Assembly (NCBI GenBank): GCA_965215195.1
Contig: CBDCDC010000002.1
Location: 3,872,001-3,936,000 of the forward strand
Reading direction: 5' to 3'
Length of the DNA stretch: 64,000 nucleotides
Source: Candidatus Latescibacterota bacterium
Lineage (GTDB): Bacteria; Latescibacterota; UBA2968; UBA8231
The stretch's first letter is position 1. Each line of letters opens with the position of its first letter. The notes beneath the pieces were generated by a model. That model ran no database searches and was not told the origin of the DNA. It saw only the letters and a list, made by a program, of their open reading frames with translations. The position numbers and the translations under genes are program-made. Of this stretch, positions 32,535 to 44,567 are shown piece after piece.

Positions 32535-34232
32535 ATGAACCTGCTATGGTCCTTGTATGCCGGCCTAGTCCTCGCCGCTTGTGCAAAGGATGCCGAGGAA
32601 CTGGAAGATCCCGTGCTGGCCGCAGTGGGGGATCGCCGGATAACGGCCTCTCAACTGATCGACTTTGAACAGCGCCTGCCGGCGCAGCTAAAAACGCAGA
32701 AATCCGGCTTGGACGGCTACCGCGACTACCTACAGACGATCATCGACAAGGAGATTTTCCTCCAAGAAGCGCTCAAAAGGGGGCTTGACGAGGTGCCGGA
32801 GGTGGCGCAGAAGCTGCGCAAGGAAAAGGCCGAACGGGTGTTGCGGCTGTTGTTCGAGCGCGAATTCCTCGCCAAAGTCCGCGTCGATGAGCAGGAATTG
32901 CGGGCGGCCTACGAGGCCGCGGACAAGGAGCGCGAGGTCAAGCTGCGCCTGATTATCGTTGCCACGCAGGCCGTCGCCGAGGATATCCGGCAAAGCCTTG
33001 CCGACGGGGAGGATTTCACCGCCCTGGCGCTCAGCCGCTCGCTGCACCAATCAACGGCACCGCAGGGTGGGGAATTGGACGGCTACCTGACCGCCAAGCG
33101 CATTCCGATCTACCTGCAAGAATACATAAACGCGCTGGCAGTCGGCGAGTACTCCGAGCCGATTCGCCTGCCCAACGGCCAGTTCGGGATCTACCAAGTC
33201 ATGCACGCCCGGCCCGTGAGTTTTGCCACCGCGAGCAACGCGCTGGAGGCCGAGCTGCGCGAGGAAAAGACGACCGCACTGATAGAGGCATTCTCGGCGC
33301 AACTGCGGGCCGACCTCGACTTGCAGGCCAACAGCGAGACTTTGCAGCAGTTACAGCAATGGGTCGCGGCCGGGCGCAGAGAGTATAACGCCGCAGAACG
33401 CGCCGGGGTACTTTTTCACTTTCGCGGCGGCCGTGTCTCGGTAGGCGATTTCTGGGATTACGCGGACGAGTTGGACATGGGGTTTTCGGGCGACATTGCC
33501 GAGTCCGTGCGCTGGTTTGCCGCAGACGTGCTGCTGCCCCGCACCTTGTTCCTGCACGTGGCCTATGAAAGGGGGATTGACCGCGAAGAGCAGATTGTGC
33601 GCTGGTATCAGCGCCGCAAAGACGCCCTGTTGCTGTTGGCGCTTAGGCAGACGGCGGTCAAGGACCAAATCCATATCGCGCCGGAAGCCGTCAGGAAACT
33701 ATACGACGAGCGGCCCGAGTTGTTCACCGCACCGGAGGAAGTCACACTGCAGGAGATCATGGTGCAAACTCGGGAAGAGGCCGTGGCGATCAGAGAGCGG
33801 ATTGAGGCCGGTGAGGATATGGGAGCACTGGCCAACGAATACACCTTGCGCGCGGCGGGCAAAGGCGCACAAGGCACATTCCACATCCACGCTTTTGAAC
33901 AATCCTTCTACCGAGAATTGATCGACGCGGTACACAGCGCCGAGATCGGCCGGTTGTACGGCCCGGTCGCGGTGACGGCGCAGCCCGCCCAAGTGGTCGG
34001 CCCGGAGGCCATGCCGCGGGGCGGCGAGTACTATTCGGTGTTCAAGGTGTTGGAGTCGAATTTCGGCAGTGTCCCCGAGCCTTTTGCCACCGCGGCGAAG
34101 CGGGCGCGGGCGCTGTTGAAGCGCGCCGAGGAGGGCCGCTTGGCGGATGCGTTTTTGATGGGATTGCGGCGGGAGTACGAAGCGAGGGTCGTCGTGTATG
34201 AGGACCGTCTGAAGACGCTGTTGCCGCAGTAG
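32535..34232 (+). CDS. PpiC/SurA-like peptidyl-prolyl isomerase lipoprotein with two rotamase domains
   Basis: Lipobox LVLAAC, VLAAVGDRRIT, GEDFTALALSRS..TAPQGGEL, and PEEVTLQEI...GEDMGALANEY. Confidence 0.85.
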   Translation: MNLLWSLYAGLVLAACAKDAEELEDPVLAAVGDRRITASQLIDFEQRLPAQLKTQKSGLDGYRDYLQTIIDKEIFLQEALKRGLDEVPEVAQKLRKEKAERVLRLLFEREFLAKVRVDEQELRAAYEAADKEREVKLRLIIVATQAVAEDIRQSLADGEDFTALALSRSLHQSTAPQGGELDGYLTAKRIPIYLQEYINALAVGEYSEPIRLPNGQFGIYQVMHARPVSFATASNALEAELREEKTTALIEAFSAQLRADLDLQANSETLQQLQQWVAAGRREYNAAERAGVLFHFRGGRVSVGDFWDYADELDMGFSGDIAESVRWFAADVLLPRTLFLHVAYERGIDREEQIVRWYQRRKDALLLLALRQTAVKDQIHIAPEAVRKLYDERPELFTAPEEVTLQEIMVQTREEAVAIRERIEAGEDMGALANEYTLRAAGKGAQGTFHIHAFEQSFYRELIDAVHSAEIGRLYGPVAVTAQPAQVVGPEAMPRGGEYYSVFKVLESNFGSVPEPFATAAKRARALLKRAEEGRLADAFLMGLRREYEARVVVYEDRLKTLLPQ

Positions 34233-34391
34233 GCAGAGCGAGTCATTGCCATTAGCCTTTGTGTGGGTTAGCTTCTAGCCTTCATTTATTGAATGTCTTT
34301 GCACTAGATTTCTGCTCTAATCATCTTTCGGCAAATCATTGGCGATCTGTGCTTAGAAGAAGACTTACAGATAAAACAAAATGGAGAAAGA

Positions 34392-36647
34392 ATGACACAA
34401 CAATCGGACATTATCCAAGAGACACTCAAAGATAGCAATTATCATCTCGGCTTGTTCAAAGAAGATGAAATTGCAACTCTGTGCCAAAAGGTCTTTATCA
34501 AAATGACCAGCACAGGCAAGAAAATTCCCTATGTGAAGTGTATTGTGCGGGGCAAGGATATTCAACTCAAGCCGGAAGAAATCGTCCGCCAACTCTACGC
34601 AAAGAGACTTATCGATCAGTATCGCTATACCAAAAATCGGTTGGGTTTTGAATACCCGGTTAGCTTTGGGCGCGAAAAGAAAAAGGCCGATATTGTCATT
34701 TTTGATAAAGACCGGCCTGATACAGCCTATATCATCGTTGAAGTAAAAAAGCCCAAACTCAAAGATGGAAAAAGCCAGCTTCGATCCTATTGCAACGCCA
34801 CAGGTGCGCCGATTGGCGTCTGGACGAATGGAGAGCAAATTTCCCATTACCACCGCAAAGACCCCAATTACTTTGAAGACATCACCGATGTTCCAAATAG
34901 CGAGCAAAGACTTGAGGACATTCTCAGTGAACGCTTTACACTCAAAGACTTAATCACCAAGGATAAGATCGCCAATGAGCGAAAATCTCTCAAAGATATT
35001 ATCCTCGAAATGGAAGATGAAGTCTTGGCAAATGCCGGAGTAGATGTATTCGAGGAGCTTTTCAAGCTCATATTTACCAAGCTCTACGACGAGTTCCTTA
35101 GCCAAGACGATAAGGAATTCATCAATCGTTCTATCCGTCGTGCTATATCAACTGTTGTTAGTGAGCCAAAACAACAAGGCCGCCTTGATGGACAGAATTA
35201 CGATGTCCTCAAGGCAGAAGTCGAAAAAATCCCAGACTACTACTTTAGGGTAATGGAGTTCAGAAACACCGGACAGACTGATACGGAGCTCAAGGACAAA
35301 ATACAAAGCCTGTTCGATAAGGCAAAAAAGAAGTGGCCAGGTGTTTTTCCAGAAGGCTCTACATTTGATCTTTCAGACAGCCACTTATCCGTCTGCGTGT
35401 CCAGTTTGCAGGATGTCAAATTGTTCAACTCCAATTTACTGGTCGTGGATGAAGCATTTGAATATCTGGTCAACAAATCTGCTAAAGGCGAAAAAGGACA
35501 ATACTTTACGCCTCGTCATATCATTGATATGTGCGTACAAATGCTCAATCCACAACCCGGCGAATACATGATTGACACCGCCTCCGGCAGTTGCGGTTTC
35601 CCGGTGCATACTATCTTCAAGCTCACTGGACACCTGTTTGGCAATTCGGATATAACAGATAAAGAAAAAGAGAATGTGCTGAAAGTATTTGGCATAGACT
35701 TTGACGAAAAAACAGTCCGTGTTGCTCGCACTCTGAATCTGATTGCAGGAGATGGCGAAACCAATGTTTTGCACTTGAATACTCTAGACTTTGAACGCTG
35801 GCGAGATAAGACCAGAGATACAAATTGGATCATAACCTATGGCAAAGGTTTTGAACGACTGGAAAAACTGCGAACTAAAAAAGACCAAAACAAGCGGTTT
35901 AACTTCGACATCTTGATGGCAAACCCGCCCTTTGCAGGAGACATCAAGGAAGGTCGCCTTTTGCATCAATACGAACTCAGTTTTAAGGCAAACGGCAAGG
36001 CGCAAAGCAAAGTCGGGCGCGATATACTGTTTATCGAGCGCAATCTGGACTTTCTCAAACCCGGTGGACGTATGGCGATTGTGCTGCCACAGGGCAGATT
36101 CAACAACACATCTAATAAATACATCCGAGAGTTTATCGCAGATCATGCTCGCATCTTGGCTGTAGTTGGGCTACATGGCAATACTTTTAAGCCGCATACG
36201 GGCACCAAGACCAGTGTGTTGTTTCTGCAAAAGTGGAATAATGACCCGGCAAAAGGGCCGCTTTGTCCCAGAGTAGATGACTATCCCATCTTTTTTGCTG
36301 TGAGTGAGAAGGGGGGAAAGGACAACTCCGGCGATTATATCTATCTCGAAGATAGAAATGGACAGGATAAGTTGGACAGAAACGGCCATCTAATTGTTGA
36401 CCACGATTTGCACAATCACGATGGAGAGTTGCCCGATGGAATAGCAGAGGCGTTTATTGCGTGGGCTAAAAGTGAAAAGCTGAGCTTCTGGAGAGTTGAA
36501 GAAGATAGGCTTGACAACAAGAGGCGTAAGGCATGGCAGAACATTATCAACAGTAATCGCAATCGGCGGCTTTATGTTGATCCCAATATCGACATTTCCC
36601 GCTTGGCCGACGAAATGAACGATGTGGAAATGGAGTTTGATGGGTGA
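34392..36647 (+). CDS. Fused restriction endonuclease-N6 adenine methyltransferase (type IIB/IIG-like RM subunit) with an extra C-terminal tail
   Basis: N-terminal PEEIVRQ..ADIVI..IIVEVKK nuclease motif, GQYFTPR, DTASGSCGF (motif I) and NPPF (motif IV). AT-rich compared with the flanks. Confidence 0.92.
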   Translation: MTQQSDIIQETLKDSNYHLGLFKEDEIATLCQKVFIKMTSTGKKIPYVKCIVRGKDIQLKPEEIVRQLYAKRLIDQYRYTKNRLGFEYPVSFGREKKKADIVIFDKDRPDTAYIIVEVKKPKLKDGKSQLRSYCNATGAPIGVWTNGEQISHYHRKDPNYFEDITDVPNSEQRLEDILSERFTLKDLITKDKIANERKSLKDIILEMEDEVLANAGVDVFEELFKLIFTKLYDEFLSQDDKEFINRSIRRAISTVVSEPKQQGRLDGQNYDVLKAEVEKIPDYYFRVMEFRNTGQTDTELKDKIQSLFDKAKKKWPGVFPEGSTFDLSDSHLSVCVSSLQDVKLFNSNLLVVDEAFEYLVNKSAKGEKGQYFTPRHIIDMCVQMLNPQPGEYMIDTASGSCGFPVHTIFKLTGHLFGNSDITDKEKENVLKVFGIDFDEKTVRVARTLNLIAGDGETNVLHLNTLDFERWRDKTRDTNWIITYGKGFERLEKLRTKKDQNKRFNFDILMANPPFAGDIKEGRLLHQYELSFKANGKAQSKVGRDILFIERNLDFLKPGGRMAIVLPQGRFNNTSNKYIREFIADHARILAVVGLHGNTFKPHTGTKTSVLFLQKWNNDPAKGPLCPRVDDYPIFFAVSEKGGKDNSGDYIYLEDRNGQDKLDRNGHLIVDHDLHNHDGELPDGIAEAFIAWAKSEKLSFWRVEEDRLDNKRRKAWQNIINSNRNRRLYVDPNIDISRLADEMNDVEMEFDG

Positions 36648-37048
36648 TTTACATCGATACAGATGTCTTGGTCAATGCCTATGTTGTTCAGGATATTGCT
36701 AAAAATCGACAAGCTAATCAGCTCATTAAGCAAGCAAATGACAACGATGTTGCGATCATCTCAACGCTTAGTGTTCAGGAATTGTTATTTGTGCTTGCAA
36801 AGCTGGACATTCAAGATGAAATTATCCACAGCGTTTATAACGAAGTCATGCAACTAGAGCCTCTTGCCTATGACATAGAAACTCTACGAAGGGCGTTTGA
36901 TATAGCAAATCGCATCGGATTCAGAAACATCAATGACTGTATTCATACGGCGATTGCTGAACAGCATTGCACGGAACTGATTACCTACAACAAGACAGAC
37001 TTCAGCAAAATCAAAGAAATTACAACGGTTAACTTGATGATACTGTGA
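36644..37048 (+). CDS. PIN-domain (VapC-like) ribonuclease toxin
   Basis: IYIDTDVL, STLSVQEL, INDCIHTAIA and LITYNKTDF give the PIN acidic residues. GTGA overlap with the upstream gene. Confidence 0.88.
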   Translation: MIYIDTDVLVNAYVVQDIAKNRQANQLIKQANDNDVAIISTLSVQELLFVLAKLDIQDEIIHSVYNEVMQLEPLAYDIETLRRAFDIANRIGFRNINDCIHTAIAEQHCTELITYNKTDFSKIKEITTVNLMIL

Positions 37049-37070
37049 CGAAGTAAATGAGGAGCTAAAG

Positions 37071-38495
37071 ATGCAGTATTCGATTGTCAAATTGAGTGAA
37101 ATAGAATCTATATCTTCACGACTTGATGCGGAGTACTATAGTTCAATTTTTCTTAAAACAGAAAAACAATTAAAATGTGGTAGTTGGGATTATTTAGAAA
37201 ATTTGGTGGAGTCCATAAAGAGTTTTGGATCATACTCCCTTTGTAATCAAATTGAATACACCGAGATTGGCATCCCATTCCTTAGAGCAAAGGATATAAA
37301 AGCGGGACTTATTGATTTTTCAGACGTACTGTATATCAGCGATGAAAAGAATGAGCTTTTATGGAAGTCAGAAATTAAACCAGAGACTGTCCTACTTACT
37401 ATGTCAGGCACTATTGGCAACTCATCAATAGCAACAAAAGAAATAAACTATCCAATAAATTCAAGTCAAGATATTGCAAAAATAATAACTAATCAGAGAC
37501 TCAACCCCTATTATCTTTCAATTTTTCTTCAGTCAATTTATGGAAAAAGGCAAATGTCTAGGATACCGATAGGAAGCGTACAGCAATACATATTTTTATG
37601 GCAGCTTGAAAAATTACTTATTCCTGTGTTTGGAAACGAAATTCAATCAAGTATAGAGAATGCTTTCAAATTGATGTTATCAACTAATAAAAAAGCTAAC
37701 AATGTCTACAACCAAGCCCAAACCCTTCTTCTATCCGAACTCGGCCTTGCCGACTGGCAACCCAAACACCGCCGAACCTTTGTCAAAAACTATTCCGATA
37801 CTCAACGAGCCGAACGCATTGACGCCGAGTATTTTCAGCCGAAATACGAAGAAATCGTCTATGCCATCAAAAGTTACGCGGGTAGATGGGAGACGCTGGG
37901 AAATCTGGTGACAATAAAAAAATGCGTAGAGGTGGGAAGCAAAGAGTACCTCACTGAGGGCATACCCTTCGTACGAGTGAGCAATCTAAGCCCATTTGAA
38001 ATCACAGAAGAAAAATACATTTCCGAAGCGTTGTATGCGGATCTCGTTAAACATCAACCCGAACAAGGCGAGATACTATTCAGCAAAGACGCAACACCCG
38101 GCATAGCCCATTATTTGCGGCAACAACCCCCAAAAATGATTCCTTCTGGTGGCATACTCCGATTAAAAAGCAAAACAGATAAAATCGCTAATGAGTACCT
38201 GACGCTGGTGCTTAACTCACTACTAACAAAAGAACAAGTCAATCGCGATGTCGGCGGCTCAGTGATTCTACATTGGCGATCAGATCAAGTGCAGGGAACA
38301 GTTATTCCCATTCTGCCCATAAAAAAACAAACTCAAATACAGCAAAAAGTTGCTGAATCTTTCAACTTGCGAAATCAGTCTAAGCACCTGCTGGAATGCG
38401 CCAAGCGAGCAGTGGAAATAGCAATTGAGCAGGGCGAACAAACAGCGATTGATTGGTTGGAAAAAGGAATCCAACCAAGACGAACATCATTTTGA
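37071..38495 (+). CDS. Restriction-modification specificity (S) subunit with two TRDs
   Basis: Repeated RLDAEYY/RIDAEYF, GIPFLRAKDI/GIPFVRVSNL, and ending SKHLLECAKRAVEIAIE. Confidence 0.88.
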   Translation: MQYSIVKLSEIESISSRLDAEYYSSIFLKTEKQLKCGSWDYLENLVESIKSFGSYSLCNQIEYTEIGIPFLRAKDIKAGLIDFSDVLYISDEKNELLWKSEIKPETVLLTMSGTIGNSSIATKEINYPINSSQDIAKIITNQRLNPYYLSIFLQSIYGKRQMSRIPIGSVQQYIFLWQLEKLLIPVFGNEIQSSIENAFKLMLSTNKKANNVYNQAQTLLLSELGLADWQPKHRRTFVKNYSDTQRAERIDAEYFQPKYEEIVYAIKSYAGRWETLGNLVTIKKCVEVGSKEYLTEGIPFVRVSNLSPFEITEEKYISEALYADLVKHQPEQGEILFSKDATPGIAHYLRQQPPKMIPSGGILRLKSKTDKIANEYLTLVLNSLLTKEQVNRDVGGSVILHWRSDQVQGTVIPILPIKKQTQIQQKVAESFNLRNQSKHLLECAKRAVEIAIEQGEQTAIDWLEKGIQPRRTSF

Positions 38496-38697
38496 AAGAG
38501 TGACTGGCGACACTTATGCGATTGTCATACACACAGGCAGAGGGTTAATCGCCAGTTATGCTGTTAGAACTCGGGTTGAAAAACTGCGAGATATTTGGCT
38601 GCATTGAGCAAAAAGTATCCCTGTCCAATCCAGCGCACTAGGCTTGAGAAGGATACAAACGGCAGTTCATTCGCTTCGTTTCTGAGGAGGACCAGTC

Positions 38698-39852
38698 GTG
38701 AAAATCACCAATGTTGAAGTCATTCACTTTCGCACCCAGCACCGCGGCCGCAGTGCTGGCTCGCGCTGGGGCTACGGCGTGTGGATTGACGACGAGGAAG
38801 TGGAAAGCACCGCTGCGATTACCCGAATTTCCACGGACGAAGGCGTCACCGGGCACATGCTGGGCGGCAACAAGGCGACCATGGAAGGTGCCGTCAAAAA
38901 TCTCTTGGTCGGCGAGGATCCCCTCAACCGCGAGAAACTATGGCACTGGATGGACCAGATGTCCACGTTTGGCCACAGCCTCGCCGAACACGAACTCGGC
39001 ATTGTCGATTGTGCGTTGTGGGATCTGGCCGGGCAAAAAGCCGGCATGCCCGTGTACCAACTTTTGGGCGGCACCCGCGACAGGGTCGAAGCATACGCCA
39101 GCACGTACCCGAACTTGGGCGGCCCCGAGGTATATGTAGATCTGGCGCACGAGTGCGTAGCACGCGGTTACAAAGCCTTCAAAGTACACGCCAACATTTG
39201 CTGGAATCCGCACACGCGGGAGCCAGCGCCGCAACTGCCGGGATTTCCCAAAGAGGATGTAGAGATCTGTCGCGCCGTGCGCGAGACCGTGGGCGACGAC
39301 ATCGCGCTGATGCTCGATCCGTTCGGGGTCTATACTCTGGAGGAATCGCTGTGGGTCGCGCGGGAATTGGAAGAATTGAATTACTATTGGTTGGAACACC
39401 CAATGGTGGAGACGCGGGTAGAGGCCTACCGCCGCTTGACGCAGCAAACCACCATTGCCATTTGTTCCCCGGAACACGTCAAGGGCGGCCCCTTTGCGCG
39501 GGCCGAGTGGCTGTTGCAGGGGGCCTGCGACATGCTGCGCATTGACGTGAATTACGGCGGCATCACGGGCTGCTGGAAGCTGATCAATTTGTGCCAGCTC
39601 TACGGCGTACAATGCGAACTGCACGGGGTTGGGGCCCCGCACGTGCATTTGGCCGCGGCCGCCCCCGAAGCCACCTGCCGCTATTACGAGCGCGGTCTGT
39701 TGCGGCTTGGGCGCGAATACGACGAAAGCCCGCCTCACCTTGGACAGATTGCCGATCCCATGGATGGCGAAGGGTGCGTCCGCGTTTCGCAAGAACCGGG
39801 GCTGGGGATAGCCTACAACTGGGATTATATCAATGCCAACCGCATTGATTGA
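38698..39852 (+). CDS. Mandelate racemase/muconate lactonizing enzyme family (enolase superfamily)
   Basis: VDCALWDLAG...PVYQLLGG, GYKAFKVH, LMLDP, WLEHP, SPE and CELH motifs. Confidence 0.93.
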   Translation: MKITNVEVIHFRTQHRGRSAGSRWGYGVWIDDEEVESTAAITRISTDEGVTGHMLGGNKATMEGAVKNLLVGEDPLNREKLWHWMDQMSTFGHSLAEHELGIVDCALWDLAGQKAGMPVYQLLGGTRDRVEAYASTYPNLGGPEVYVDLAHECVARGYKAFKVHANICWNPHTREPAPQLPGFPKEDVEICRAVRETVGDDIALMLDPFGVYTLEESLWVARELEELNYYWLEHPMVETRVEAYRRLTQQTTIAICSPEHVKGGPFARAEWLLQGACDMLRIDVNYGGITGCWKLINLCQLYGVQCELHGVGAPHVHLAAAAPEATCRYYERGLLRLGREYDESPPHLGQIADPMDGEGCVRVSQEPGLGIAYNWDYINANRID

Positions 39853-43895: not shown

Positions 43896-44567
43896 ATGAG
43901 CGAAAGTGCCGATCCCCAAACCCGTGCGATCCCCAAACCCGAAGAAATGCCTTGGGTCATTAGCTATCTGCACAACGACATTCAAGACCTACGTCGAGAC
44001 CTGCGCACCCAAGTAGGGGCCGTCAACAACCGCATTGACGAGACCAACCGCATATTGAGCGAACAGATTCATGAGACCAACCGCGTGTTGAGCGAACAGA
44101 TTCATGAGACCAACAACCGCATTGACGAAACCAACCGCGTATTGAGCGAGCAAATTCATGAGACCAACCGCGTATTGGGCGAACAGATTCATGAGACCAA
44201 CAACCGCATTGACGAGACCAATCGCGTATTGGGCGAGCAGATTCATGAGACCAACCGCGTGTTGAGCGAACAGATTCATGAGACCAACAATCGCATTGAC
44301 GAGACCAACCGCGTATTGAGCGAGCAGATTCATGAGACCAACCGCGTGTTGAGCGAACAGATTCATGAGACCAACAATCGCATTGACGAGACCAACCGCG
44401 TATTGAGCGAACAGATTCATGAGACCAACAACCGCATTGACGAGACCAACCGCGTATTGAGCGAGCAGATTCGCGCTGTCCACAAGCGCATGGACACCTA
44501 TTTCCTGTGGATGATGGGCACGTTGGTGGCCATCACCGGCGTCCTCATCGCCGTCATCAAGCTCTGA
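43896..44567 (+). CDS. C-terminally membrane-anchored coiled-coil repeat protein (DUF1640/CCDC90-like architecture)
   Basis: GAGGAG RBS, short head, NNRIDET/NRVLSEQIHET repeats, and TM tail FLWMMGTLVAITGVLIAVIKL. Confidence 0.8.
   Translation: MSESADPQTRAIPKPEEMPWVISYLHNDIQDLRRDLRTQVGAVNNRIDETNRILSEQIHETNRVLSEQIHETNNRIDETNRVLSEQIHETNRVLGEQIHETNNRIDETNRVLGEQIHETNRVLSEQIHETNNRIDETNRVLSEQIHETNRVLSEQIHETNNRIDETNRVLSEQIHETNNRIDETNRVLSEQIRAVHKRMDTYFLWMMGTLVAITGVLIAVIKL
44025..44471 (+). repeat. Coding tandem array of 21-bp and 33-bp units: (21-33-33)x4 then (21-33)x2, last unit partial
   Basis: Units aacaaccgcattgacgagacc and aaccgcgtgttgagcgaacagattcatgagacc, with few substitutions. Confidence 0.95.

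Follow-up and report, generated by a model that had tools for sequence, protein, structure and literature searches.

How can a toxin gene be kept in a restriction–modification (RM) operon that encodes no antitoxin of its own? The question is raised by a locus in a stretch of 64,000 nucleotides from a Candidatus Latescibacterota bacterium (assembly GCA_965215195.1, contig CBDCDC010000002.1, positions 3,872,001 to 3,936,000; the whole stretch is called the window here), in which a gene for a VapC-like PIN-domain protein, a putative toxin, lies between the genes for an RM enzyme and its specificity (S) subunit. An earlier note, made from the sequence of this DNA alone, had pointed to an antitoxin-like tail at the end of the RM enzyme. 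Our analysis suggests that the RM enzyme probably carries a VapB-type neutralising module in this tail and holds the PIN toxin, thereby acting as its antidote.

The three genes lie on the same (+) strand. The RM protein gene (34392..36647; 751 amino acids (aa)) encodes a nuclease, an N6-adenine methylase and the tail, as supported by Pfam, PADLOC and a match in the PDB; it is followed by the PIN gene (36644..37048; 134 aa; PF01850, E 1e-13) and by the S gene (37071..38495; 474 aa; NCBIfam and PADLOC). The coordinates of the open reading frames (ORFs) and their domains confirm that the RM and PIN genes overlap by GTGA (36644..36647, + strand), which joins the RM stop codon TGA (36645-36647) to the PIN start codon GTG, and that the S gene comes next. 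No further + strand ORF is present between the RM, PIN and S genes, so that a separate antitoxin gene is indeed absent, as the earlier note had it, and no + strand terminator-like site lies between them either. A stop-start overlap of the form [A/G]TGA is retained in 6/6 related loci, and in the window a GGAG stands within the last tail codons, ending 8 nt 5' of the PIN GTG start. Given this overlap, the PIN would be translated by ribosomes finishing the RM gene and, consequently, would not be made without its neutraliser. We describe the locus as a three-gene operon, namely a two-subunit type IIB-like RM system (RM and S) with a VapC-like PIN gene inserted between its two genes.

The suspected boundary of the tail proved to be correct. 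The motif LSFW occupies residues 697-700 of the RM protein (36480-36491) and looks like the natural end of this methylase family: among the best 120 of 8000 hits with the RM protein, about 47 terminate 1-7 residues past LSFW, and the best PADLOC methylase model stops at residue 701, i.e., at the tail start. The frame continues for 51 residues (701-751; 36492..36644, + strand), close to the 50 or so counted before, and this tail is set apart by its position beyond LSFW, its homology, its dN/dS values and its behaviour in co-folding; it matches no Pfam family. A conserved extension recognised by a profile of the tail is borne by 70 of the 120 homologues, and P0041, P0064, P0119, P0034 and P0104 end before LSFW or hold only the first part of the tail. 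In 13 pairwise comparisons the dN/dS of the tail ranged from 0.11 to 0.49, two further pairs being saturated; judged by these substitution ratios, the tail codons are under purifying selection. A tree of the RM core, computed without the tail, requires at least 14 changes of tail state among the 120 homologues, 10 of them forced by well-supported branches; shuffling gave a mean of 38.4 changes, and 0/500 shuffles were as low as 14.

The region 36200-37200 is covered by contigs of three sequencing runs from three studies, one of these runs possibly being the source sample; the contigs differ from the window by 0, 1 and 2 substitutions, and none has an indel. One of the substitutions turns the tail Asp two codons upstream of the stop into Glu. 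None of these contigs has a stop after LSFW, the observation that had been named as speaking against the fusion. Together with the conservation in 70/120 homologues, they exclude such a stop, an assembly artefact and a one-off deletion. Of the accidental deletion fusion raised in the earlier note, the one-off form therefore falls, in view of this conservation and the dN/dS of 0.11-0.49, while an old fusion is still the likely origin of the arrangement.

The nature of the tail is indicated by relatives of the PIN gene. A scan of metagenome contigs with the PIN alignment gave 25 loci. The closest PIN among them (L068, 73% identity) is preceded by an RM protein with the same tail. At PINs of 38-54% identity, a small ORF stands upstream instead, 74-93 aa long when counted from the first ATG and ending at, or overlapping, the PIN start; the C-termini of these small ORFs are collinear with the RM tail over about 37 residues. 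The window tail alone matches five of the small ORFs (phmmer E 3.8e-9 to 5.3e-6, among 2171 ORFs). A hidden Markov model (HMM) made from 15 free-standing antitoxin C-termini, with no RM tails included, and searched against 1128 six-frame ORFs of the window matched the RM tail only (E 9.6e-7, next 0.21). By these sequence comparisons the likeness between the tail and the antitoxin ends exceeds chance, and the C-terminal homology to small ORFs upstream of PIN homologues, which an antitoxin-like tail would imply, is borne out. Within the DNA examined, RM or S genes stand near the PIN in only L068 among the 25 loci; hence, the pairs of small ORF and PIN look like ordinary stand-alone two-gene modules.

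Searching the tail profile against 1.84 billion representative proteins returned 45 hits at E<=0.001, 42 of them no longer than 111 aa. We sorted 34 of the 45 by eye, which gave 20 small proteins in which the motif, at or close to the C-terminus, follows other N-terminal parts, 12 short proteins with an RM-type tail and 2 unrelated repeat proteins. VapB antitoxins carry heads of the AbrB/MazE, RelB/Phd or DUF2281 type. In P0271 the N-terminal part matches MazE_antitoxin (MazE/AbrB; 35.8 bits against a cut-off of 24.7), in P0264 it is RelB-like (27.2 bits against a cut-off of 27), and several other small proteins with the tail motif are DUF2281-like, below the cut-off. The MazE/AbrB or RelB-like heads on some of them mark the small proteins as classical antitoxins, and DUF2281-PIN pairs appear among the tabulated type II toxin-antitoxin pairs of PMC4963859. 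The tail motif accordingly represents a modular, C-terminal, toxin-side part of VapB-type antitoxins, here joined to an RM enzyme that replaces the DNA-binding head. Broken stand-alone pairs are found as well: in P0266, a DUF2281-type partner is fused to PIN pieces, and L089 and L090 each have a PIN interrupted so that it forms two ORFs.

The PIN protein itself has four acidic residues, D5, E46, D98 and D119, which are invariant in 49 homologues (63-100% identity) and which, by their position, we take to be the catalytic acidic set. When the PIN and the tail were co-folded, each with its alignment, three runs gave a score of 0.68 (range 0.66-0.72), whereas the best of 3 controls had 0.00; of 157 solved complexes, 116 attain the mark applied to such scores, as do 2 of 215 mismatched pairs, rates that are approximate for our runs with own alignments. 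At least 90% of the contacts agree between runs, and the pLDDT of the partner is 68-70. The two chains are therefore predicted to bind, as the note's reading of the tail required. The predicted contacts on the PIN include residues 6-7, 46, 94-97 and 115-116, beside the invariant D5, E46, D98 and D119, so that the tail is predicted to lie on the PIN surface and to reach residues beside the catalytic acids, like VapB tails do on VapC. By sequence, the closest PDB match to the PIN has an E of 0.008, i.e., there is no close solved relative. Neither the viral contig collection nor plasmids gave a match to the PIN profile, and at E<=1e-15 none came from 401 sampled genomes of the phylum of L018 or from 401 sampled genomes of the phylum of L003; these phylum searches cover samples, with at most 10 candidates scored per genome.

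In the loci with readable DNA, the tail is accompanied by a PIN, either intact or as a remnant. A tailed RM gene, PIN and S are found side by side in the window and in L068, G090, G139 and G088. The picture is different in 66 loci from a scan with the RM protein, where nearly all matches end at residues 699-703: PIN or tail is present in 0/66, and PIN in 0/5 whole genomes that hold five of these untailed loci. In G092, an untailed RM gene is followed directly by S. Indirect evidence comes from contig sizes, for which the PIN homologues compared were the 120 listed of 249: the longest contig has the same size as that of a listed PIN homologue for 20/70 tailed versus 2/50 other RM homologues. 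The two exceptions are P0034, which is split and has its tail as a separate 61-aa protein (P0241) on a same-sized contig, and P0064 with a truncated tail. Wherever a PIN of this clade is unbroken and the sequence upstream of it can be read, either the tail or a small partner ORF is present. In L068, about 840 nt lie between PIN and S (L068:4575-5418), where a further inserted gene is possible.

The earlier note had reasoned that tails in homologues lacking PIN would count against an antidote role. Such homologues do exist: in G085 the tail is truncated and S follows 87 nt downstream without an intact PIN; in G082 an intact tail is followed by a PIN remnant (its first 15 residues), a broken S start and an ORF resembling those of insertion sequences (IS); and in P0054 RM, tail and S form one in-frame fusion. 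In P0024, P0027, P0039, P0044 and P0049, moreover, the tails break off in the last few residues, as judged by eye. With their truncation, remnant and fusion, respectively, G085, G082 and P0054 look like later PIN losses, and so do the five cases judged by eye; loss of the PIN with the tail left behind is the direction of loss expected if the tail is the antidote. Two further proteins were recognised by eye, P0246, in which the first 21 RM residues are joined to the tail, and P0272, in which an HSDR_N_2 domain is joined to the tail; they hint at selection to retain the tail while the enzyme decays. As a separate observation, the decayed copy of G082 (L102:3741-4300 and L106) has a second tailed RM C-terminal fragment about 9 kb away.

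Taken together, the last 51 residues of the RM protein would be the C-terminal module with which the antitoxin family paired with this PIN clade elsewhere binds its toxin, and the whole RM enzyme would stand in for the usual DNA-binding head of the antitoxin. Once translated, the PIN would be captured by the tail and kept inactive on the RM enzyme. More weakly, we infer that loss, degradation or disturbance of the tail or of the RM protein could free the PIN. Candidate triggers would be a lost cassette, proteolysis or a phage factor directed at the RM enzyme, and by arresting growth the free PIN would then stabilise the cassette, serve as a back-up to restriction, or both. The note's proposal of a toxin held by the RM protein itself has thus gained support from the homology of the tail to antitoxins, the predicted binding and the co-occurrence of tail and PIN, while its second half, the release as a guard or addiction device, stays a conjecture that follows the logic known for PrrC with the RM system EcoprrI. 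A further step would be to see tail and PIN as a portable self-guarding cassette that makes the restraint of a suicide or dormancy RNase depend on an intact restriction complex, in which phage anti-restriction factors, proteolysis or loss of the RM genes would free the toxin; we regard this as conceivable, but rather doubtful.

Several points weigh against an RM enzyme acting as antidote. Binding is a prediction, and the passing co-fold score may in part be due to solved VapBC complexes being remembered by the model. The tailed RM genes without an intact PIN indicate that the tail can persist without the toxin, and the tail module, although clustered on the RM tree, is frequently lost or exchanged. 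At E<=0.01, the tail profile also missed the upstream ORF in 6 PIN loci (L080, L081, L083, L084, L089 and L090), the ends of these ORFs being only loosely similar to the tail by eye. A classical antitoxin is labile and autoregulates its operon; here, the tail comes without a DNA-binding domain and sits on a 700-residue enzyme, so that the logic of addiction is not automatic. Finally, the toxicity of this PIN is itself putative.

Binding as such would also be expected if the tail were a docking peptide that recruits the PIN as a working nuclease subunit, active while bound and cutting, e.g., phage RNA or DNA at the enzyme, so that no release would be required; the co-fold supports binding and cannot separate inhibition from docking. 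PIN nucleases have been raised as possible restriction modules in HsdM-HsdS operons that lack an R gene (Matelska et al., 2017; PMC5499597), and the island holds no HsdR gene. However, the RM protein has a nuclease domain of its own with invariant D100, E117 and K119, and its untailed relatives manage with RM and S alone; an extra nuclease is therefore not needed. The motif, moreover, derives from proteins with MazE and RelB antitoxin heads, the C-terminal region of VapB being its neutralising part, and among the predicted contacts are E46 and neighbours of the other catalytic acids. On this balance, we consider docking of an active nuclease unlikely. A different possibility, which we judge to be quite unlikely, is that the tail is set free as a mini-antitoxin, by an internal start or a protease cut, and that the fusion is only a means of expression, with the RM enzyme not being the holder. 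Separate small tails do occur, P0241 (61 aa) and P0242 (85 aa), on contigs of the same size as those of PIN hits, and the window has an in-frame TTG at residue 680 with a GGAG just upstream. This GGAG, however, ends just 2 nt before the TTG, and from residue 700 on, other in-frame ATG, GTG or TTG codons are found only at residues 738-747. The window shows no persuasive internal start. The split forms start at methionines that are absent from the window and may be frameshifts or artefacts of gene calling, whereas the fused frame is retained in 70/120 homologues.

It could also be argued that tail and PIN are functionless relics, drifting since an antitoxin remnant became attached to the RM gene through an old deletion. 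The frequent loss of tail and PIN and the PIN remnants and truncated tails in relatives would fit such decay. Drift, however, is hard to reconcile with a tail dN/dS of 0.11-0.49, an overlap kept at 6/6 loci, PIN catalytic residues invariant in 49 homologues and a tail present in 70/120 homologue clusters, which makes a relic very improbable.

Turning to the antidote's presumed carrier, the RM protein matches the PADLOC model MTase_I PDLC03034 (E 1.5e-291). Its N-terminal PD-(D/E)xK-type nuclease domain (residues 61-168; 34572..34895, + strand; HSDR_N_2, E 1.6e-26) contains D100, E117 and K119, which are invariant among 39 homologues and presumably form the D...ExK motif. In the N6-adenine methyltransferase domain (residues 352-618; 35445..36245, + strand; N6_Mtase, E 3.3e-33), P512, P513 and F514 of the NPPF motif are invariant and N511 is at least 90% conserved in the same homologues. 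The S subunit has a MAD5-like match in NCBIfam (E 1.3e-56, below the cut-off) and a type I S match, and PADLOC recognises Specificity_I (E 8.7e-44) in two stretches. Membership in the methylation-associated defence system (MADS) was considered and rejected: its models match the RM and S proteins far short of their NCBIfam cut-offs, with MAD2 at 297.8 bits versus a cut-off of 720 and MAD5 at 192.4 versus 400, and there are only three genes in the island. BcgI is a type IIB enzyme with RM and S subunits. The closest solved relative of the RM protein is RM.BsaXI (type IIB; PDB 8w0p), which likewise combines a nuclease and a gamma-type N6-adenine methylase on one chain with a separate two-part specificity subunit; in contrast to this shared layout, the sequence likeness is confined to the methylase core (residues 436-618; E 3.5e-20), and the molecule names of the BsaXI entry include neither a PIN nor a tail. 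By its domains, the RM system of the island has the BcgI/BsaXI-like architecture of type IIB, with nuclease and N6-adenine methylase on one chain plus S. In the cyanobacterial loci L011, L013-L016, L018-L020 and L022, the RM and S parts are found in one frame of about 1170-1205 aa, i.e., as single-chain forms.

The three genes make up a low-GC island (34240..38680) containing nothing else, delimited by the drop in GC content (0.30-0.48 within, about 0.6 outside) and by comparison of the flanks in same-genus genomes. In these genomes, the genes flanking the island stand side by side, with a gap of 37 bp in G133 and 66 bp in G127, and the related cassette of G139 is at a different locus from that of the window; both observations point to the island being a mobile insertion. 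No meaningful repeats were found at the island flanks, and sigma-70 promoter-like sites within it are fewer than in shuffled sequences (4 versus a mean of 8.3). The site itself, between a PpiC/SurA-like gene (32535..34232) and an enolase-family gene (38698..39852), is variable within the genus: beside the short gaps of 37 bp in G133 and 66 bp in G127, 0.5-5 kb are found in other genomes (G130 and G126 among those compared), and in the window the borders are 34232-34392 and 38495-38698. It looks like an integration hot spot with cargo differing between genomes. Elsewhere in the window (43896-44567, + strand), a 223-aa ORF consists mostly of a tandem unit of about 11-18 residues (ETNRVLSEQIH / ETNNRID), with a hydrophobic stretch at its end.

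The junction between RM and S, in which the PIN gene is placed here, holds other genes in untailed relatives, namely DUF3800 (in a Campylobacter locus), RhuM with DUF559, Schlafen AlbA_2 and Uma2, besides several ORFs without family assignment. The inserted stretches are L030:7069-8297, L039:4564-5724, L045:7052-8062, L065:5502-6152, L002:4647-5201, L049:7039-7656 and L034:7168-7938, and accessory genes seem to have settled at this junction repeatedly. Strings of the HEPN-like form R-x4-H, noticed by eye among RM-S inserts of other lineages, had no Pfam support and were dismissed. In L001, a locus in a metagenome-assembled genome (MAG) of Nitrospira, an untailed RM gene and S are separated by a 68-aa ORF (L001:7091-7297) whose start is DUF2281-like by eye and which is not followed by a PIN; this ORF has no Pfam hit at E<=0.01 and may be an orphan antitoxin remnant at the RM-S junction.

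Toxin genes without antitoxins are frequent in restriction, CRISPR and other defence operons, and the defence proteins have been hypothesised to be their silencers. PrrC is, to our knowledge, the only such case studied in depth, and the sequence basis of its interface is not understood. An RM enzyme with the toxin-binding peptide of the cognate antitoxin family, occurring in many lineages, would make the silencer hypothesis directly testable. Large enzymes that end in the C-terminal module of an antitoxin would be a signature by which antitoxins hidden in other defence systems could be found. Makarova et al. (2012; PMC3506569) proposed that immunity proteins are in themselves the antitoxins of the toxins associated with them; if the self-guarding cassette outlined above is real, the present locus would be the first case in which this proposal can be read directly from sequence homology, and a minimal two-protein model for it. 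In our full-text literature searches, no description of an RM enzyme with a fused antitoxin module came up.

Compared with known systems, the locus resembles VapBC in its PIN toxin with four conserved acidic residues, in a neutralising peptide that would be encoded directly upstream and overlaps the toxin start, and in the homology of the tail to the C-terminal portion of the free-standing proteins that accompany related PINs. It differs in having neither an antitoxin gene nor a DNA-binding head, the module being a C-terminal extension of a 700-residue RM enzyme, so that classical autoregulation by the antitoxin cannot work here. With PrrC, an anticodon nuclease described as kept latent by the type IC RM system EcoprrI and activated by the T4 Stp peptide (PMC3506569, PMC12707154), it shares the placement of a toxin RNase gene within an RM operon that has no antitoxin gene, and the proposed role of the RM complex as inhibitor. 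PrrC, however, combines an ABC-ATPase with a HEPN-type nuclease, in contrast to the 134-aa PIN found here, and EcoprrI is a three-subunit type I enzyme; an antitoxin-derived peptide is not known in EcoprrI, whereas here this link is readable in the sequence and activation would follow by analogy. A further parallel is formed by three PIN-HsdM-HsdS operons without an R gene, in which the "antitoxin elements" are said to be "missing" and regulation is left open (Matelska et al., 2017; PMC5499597). A PIN gene beside methylase and specificity genes, without an antitoxin gene, is common to both, but an antitoxin-like extension of the methylase is not reported in the sections of that paper dealing with these operons. 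The arrangement described here consequently joins two known kinds of system, the VapBC pair and a PrrC-like coupling of toxin and RM enzyme, rather than representing a new category.

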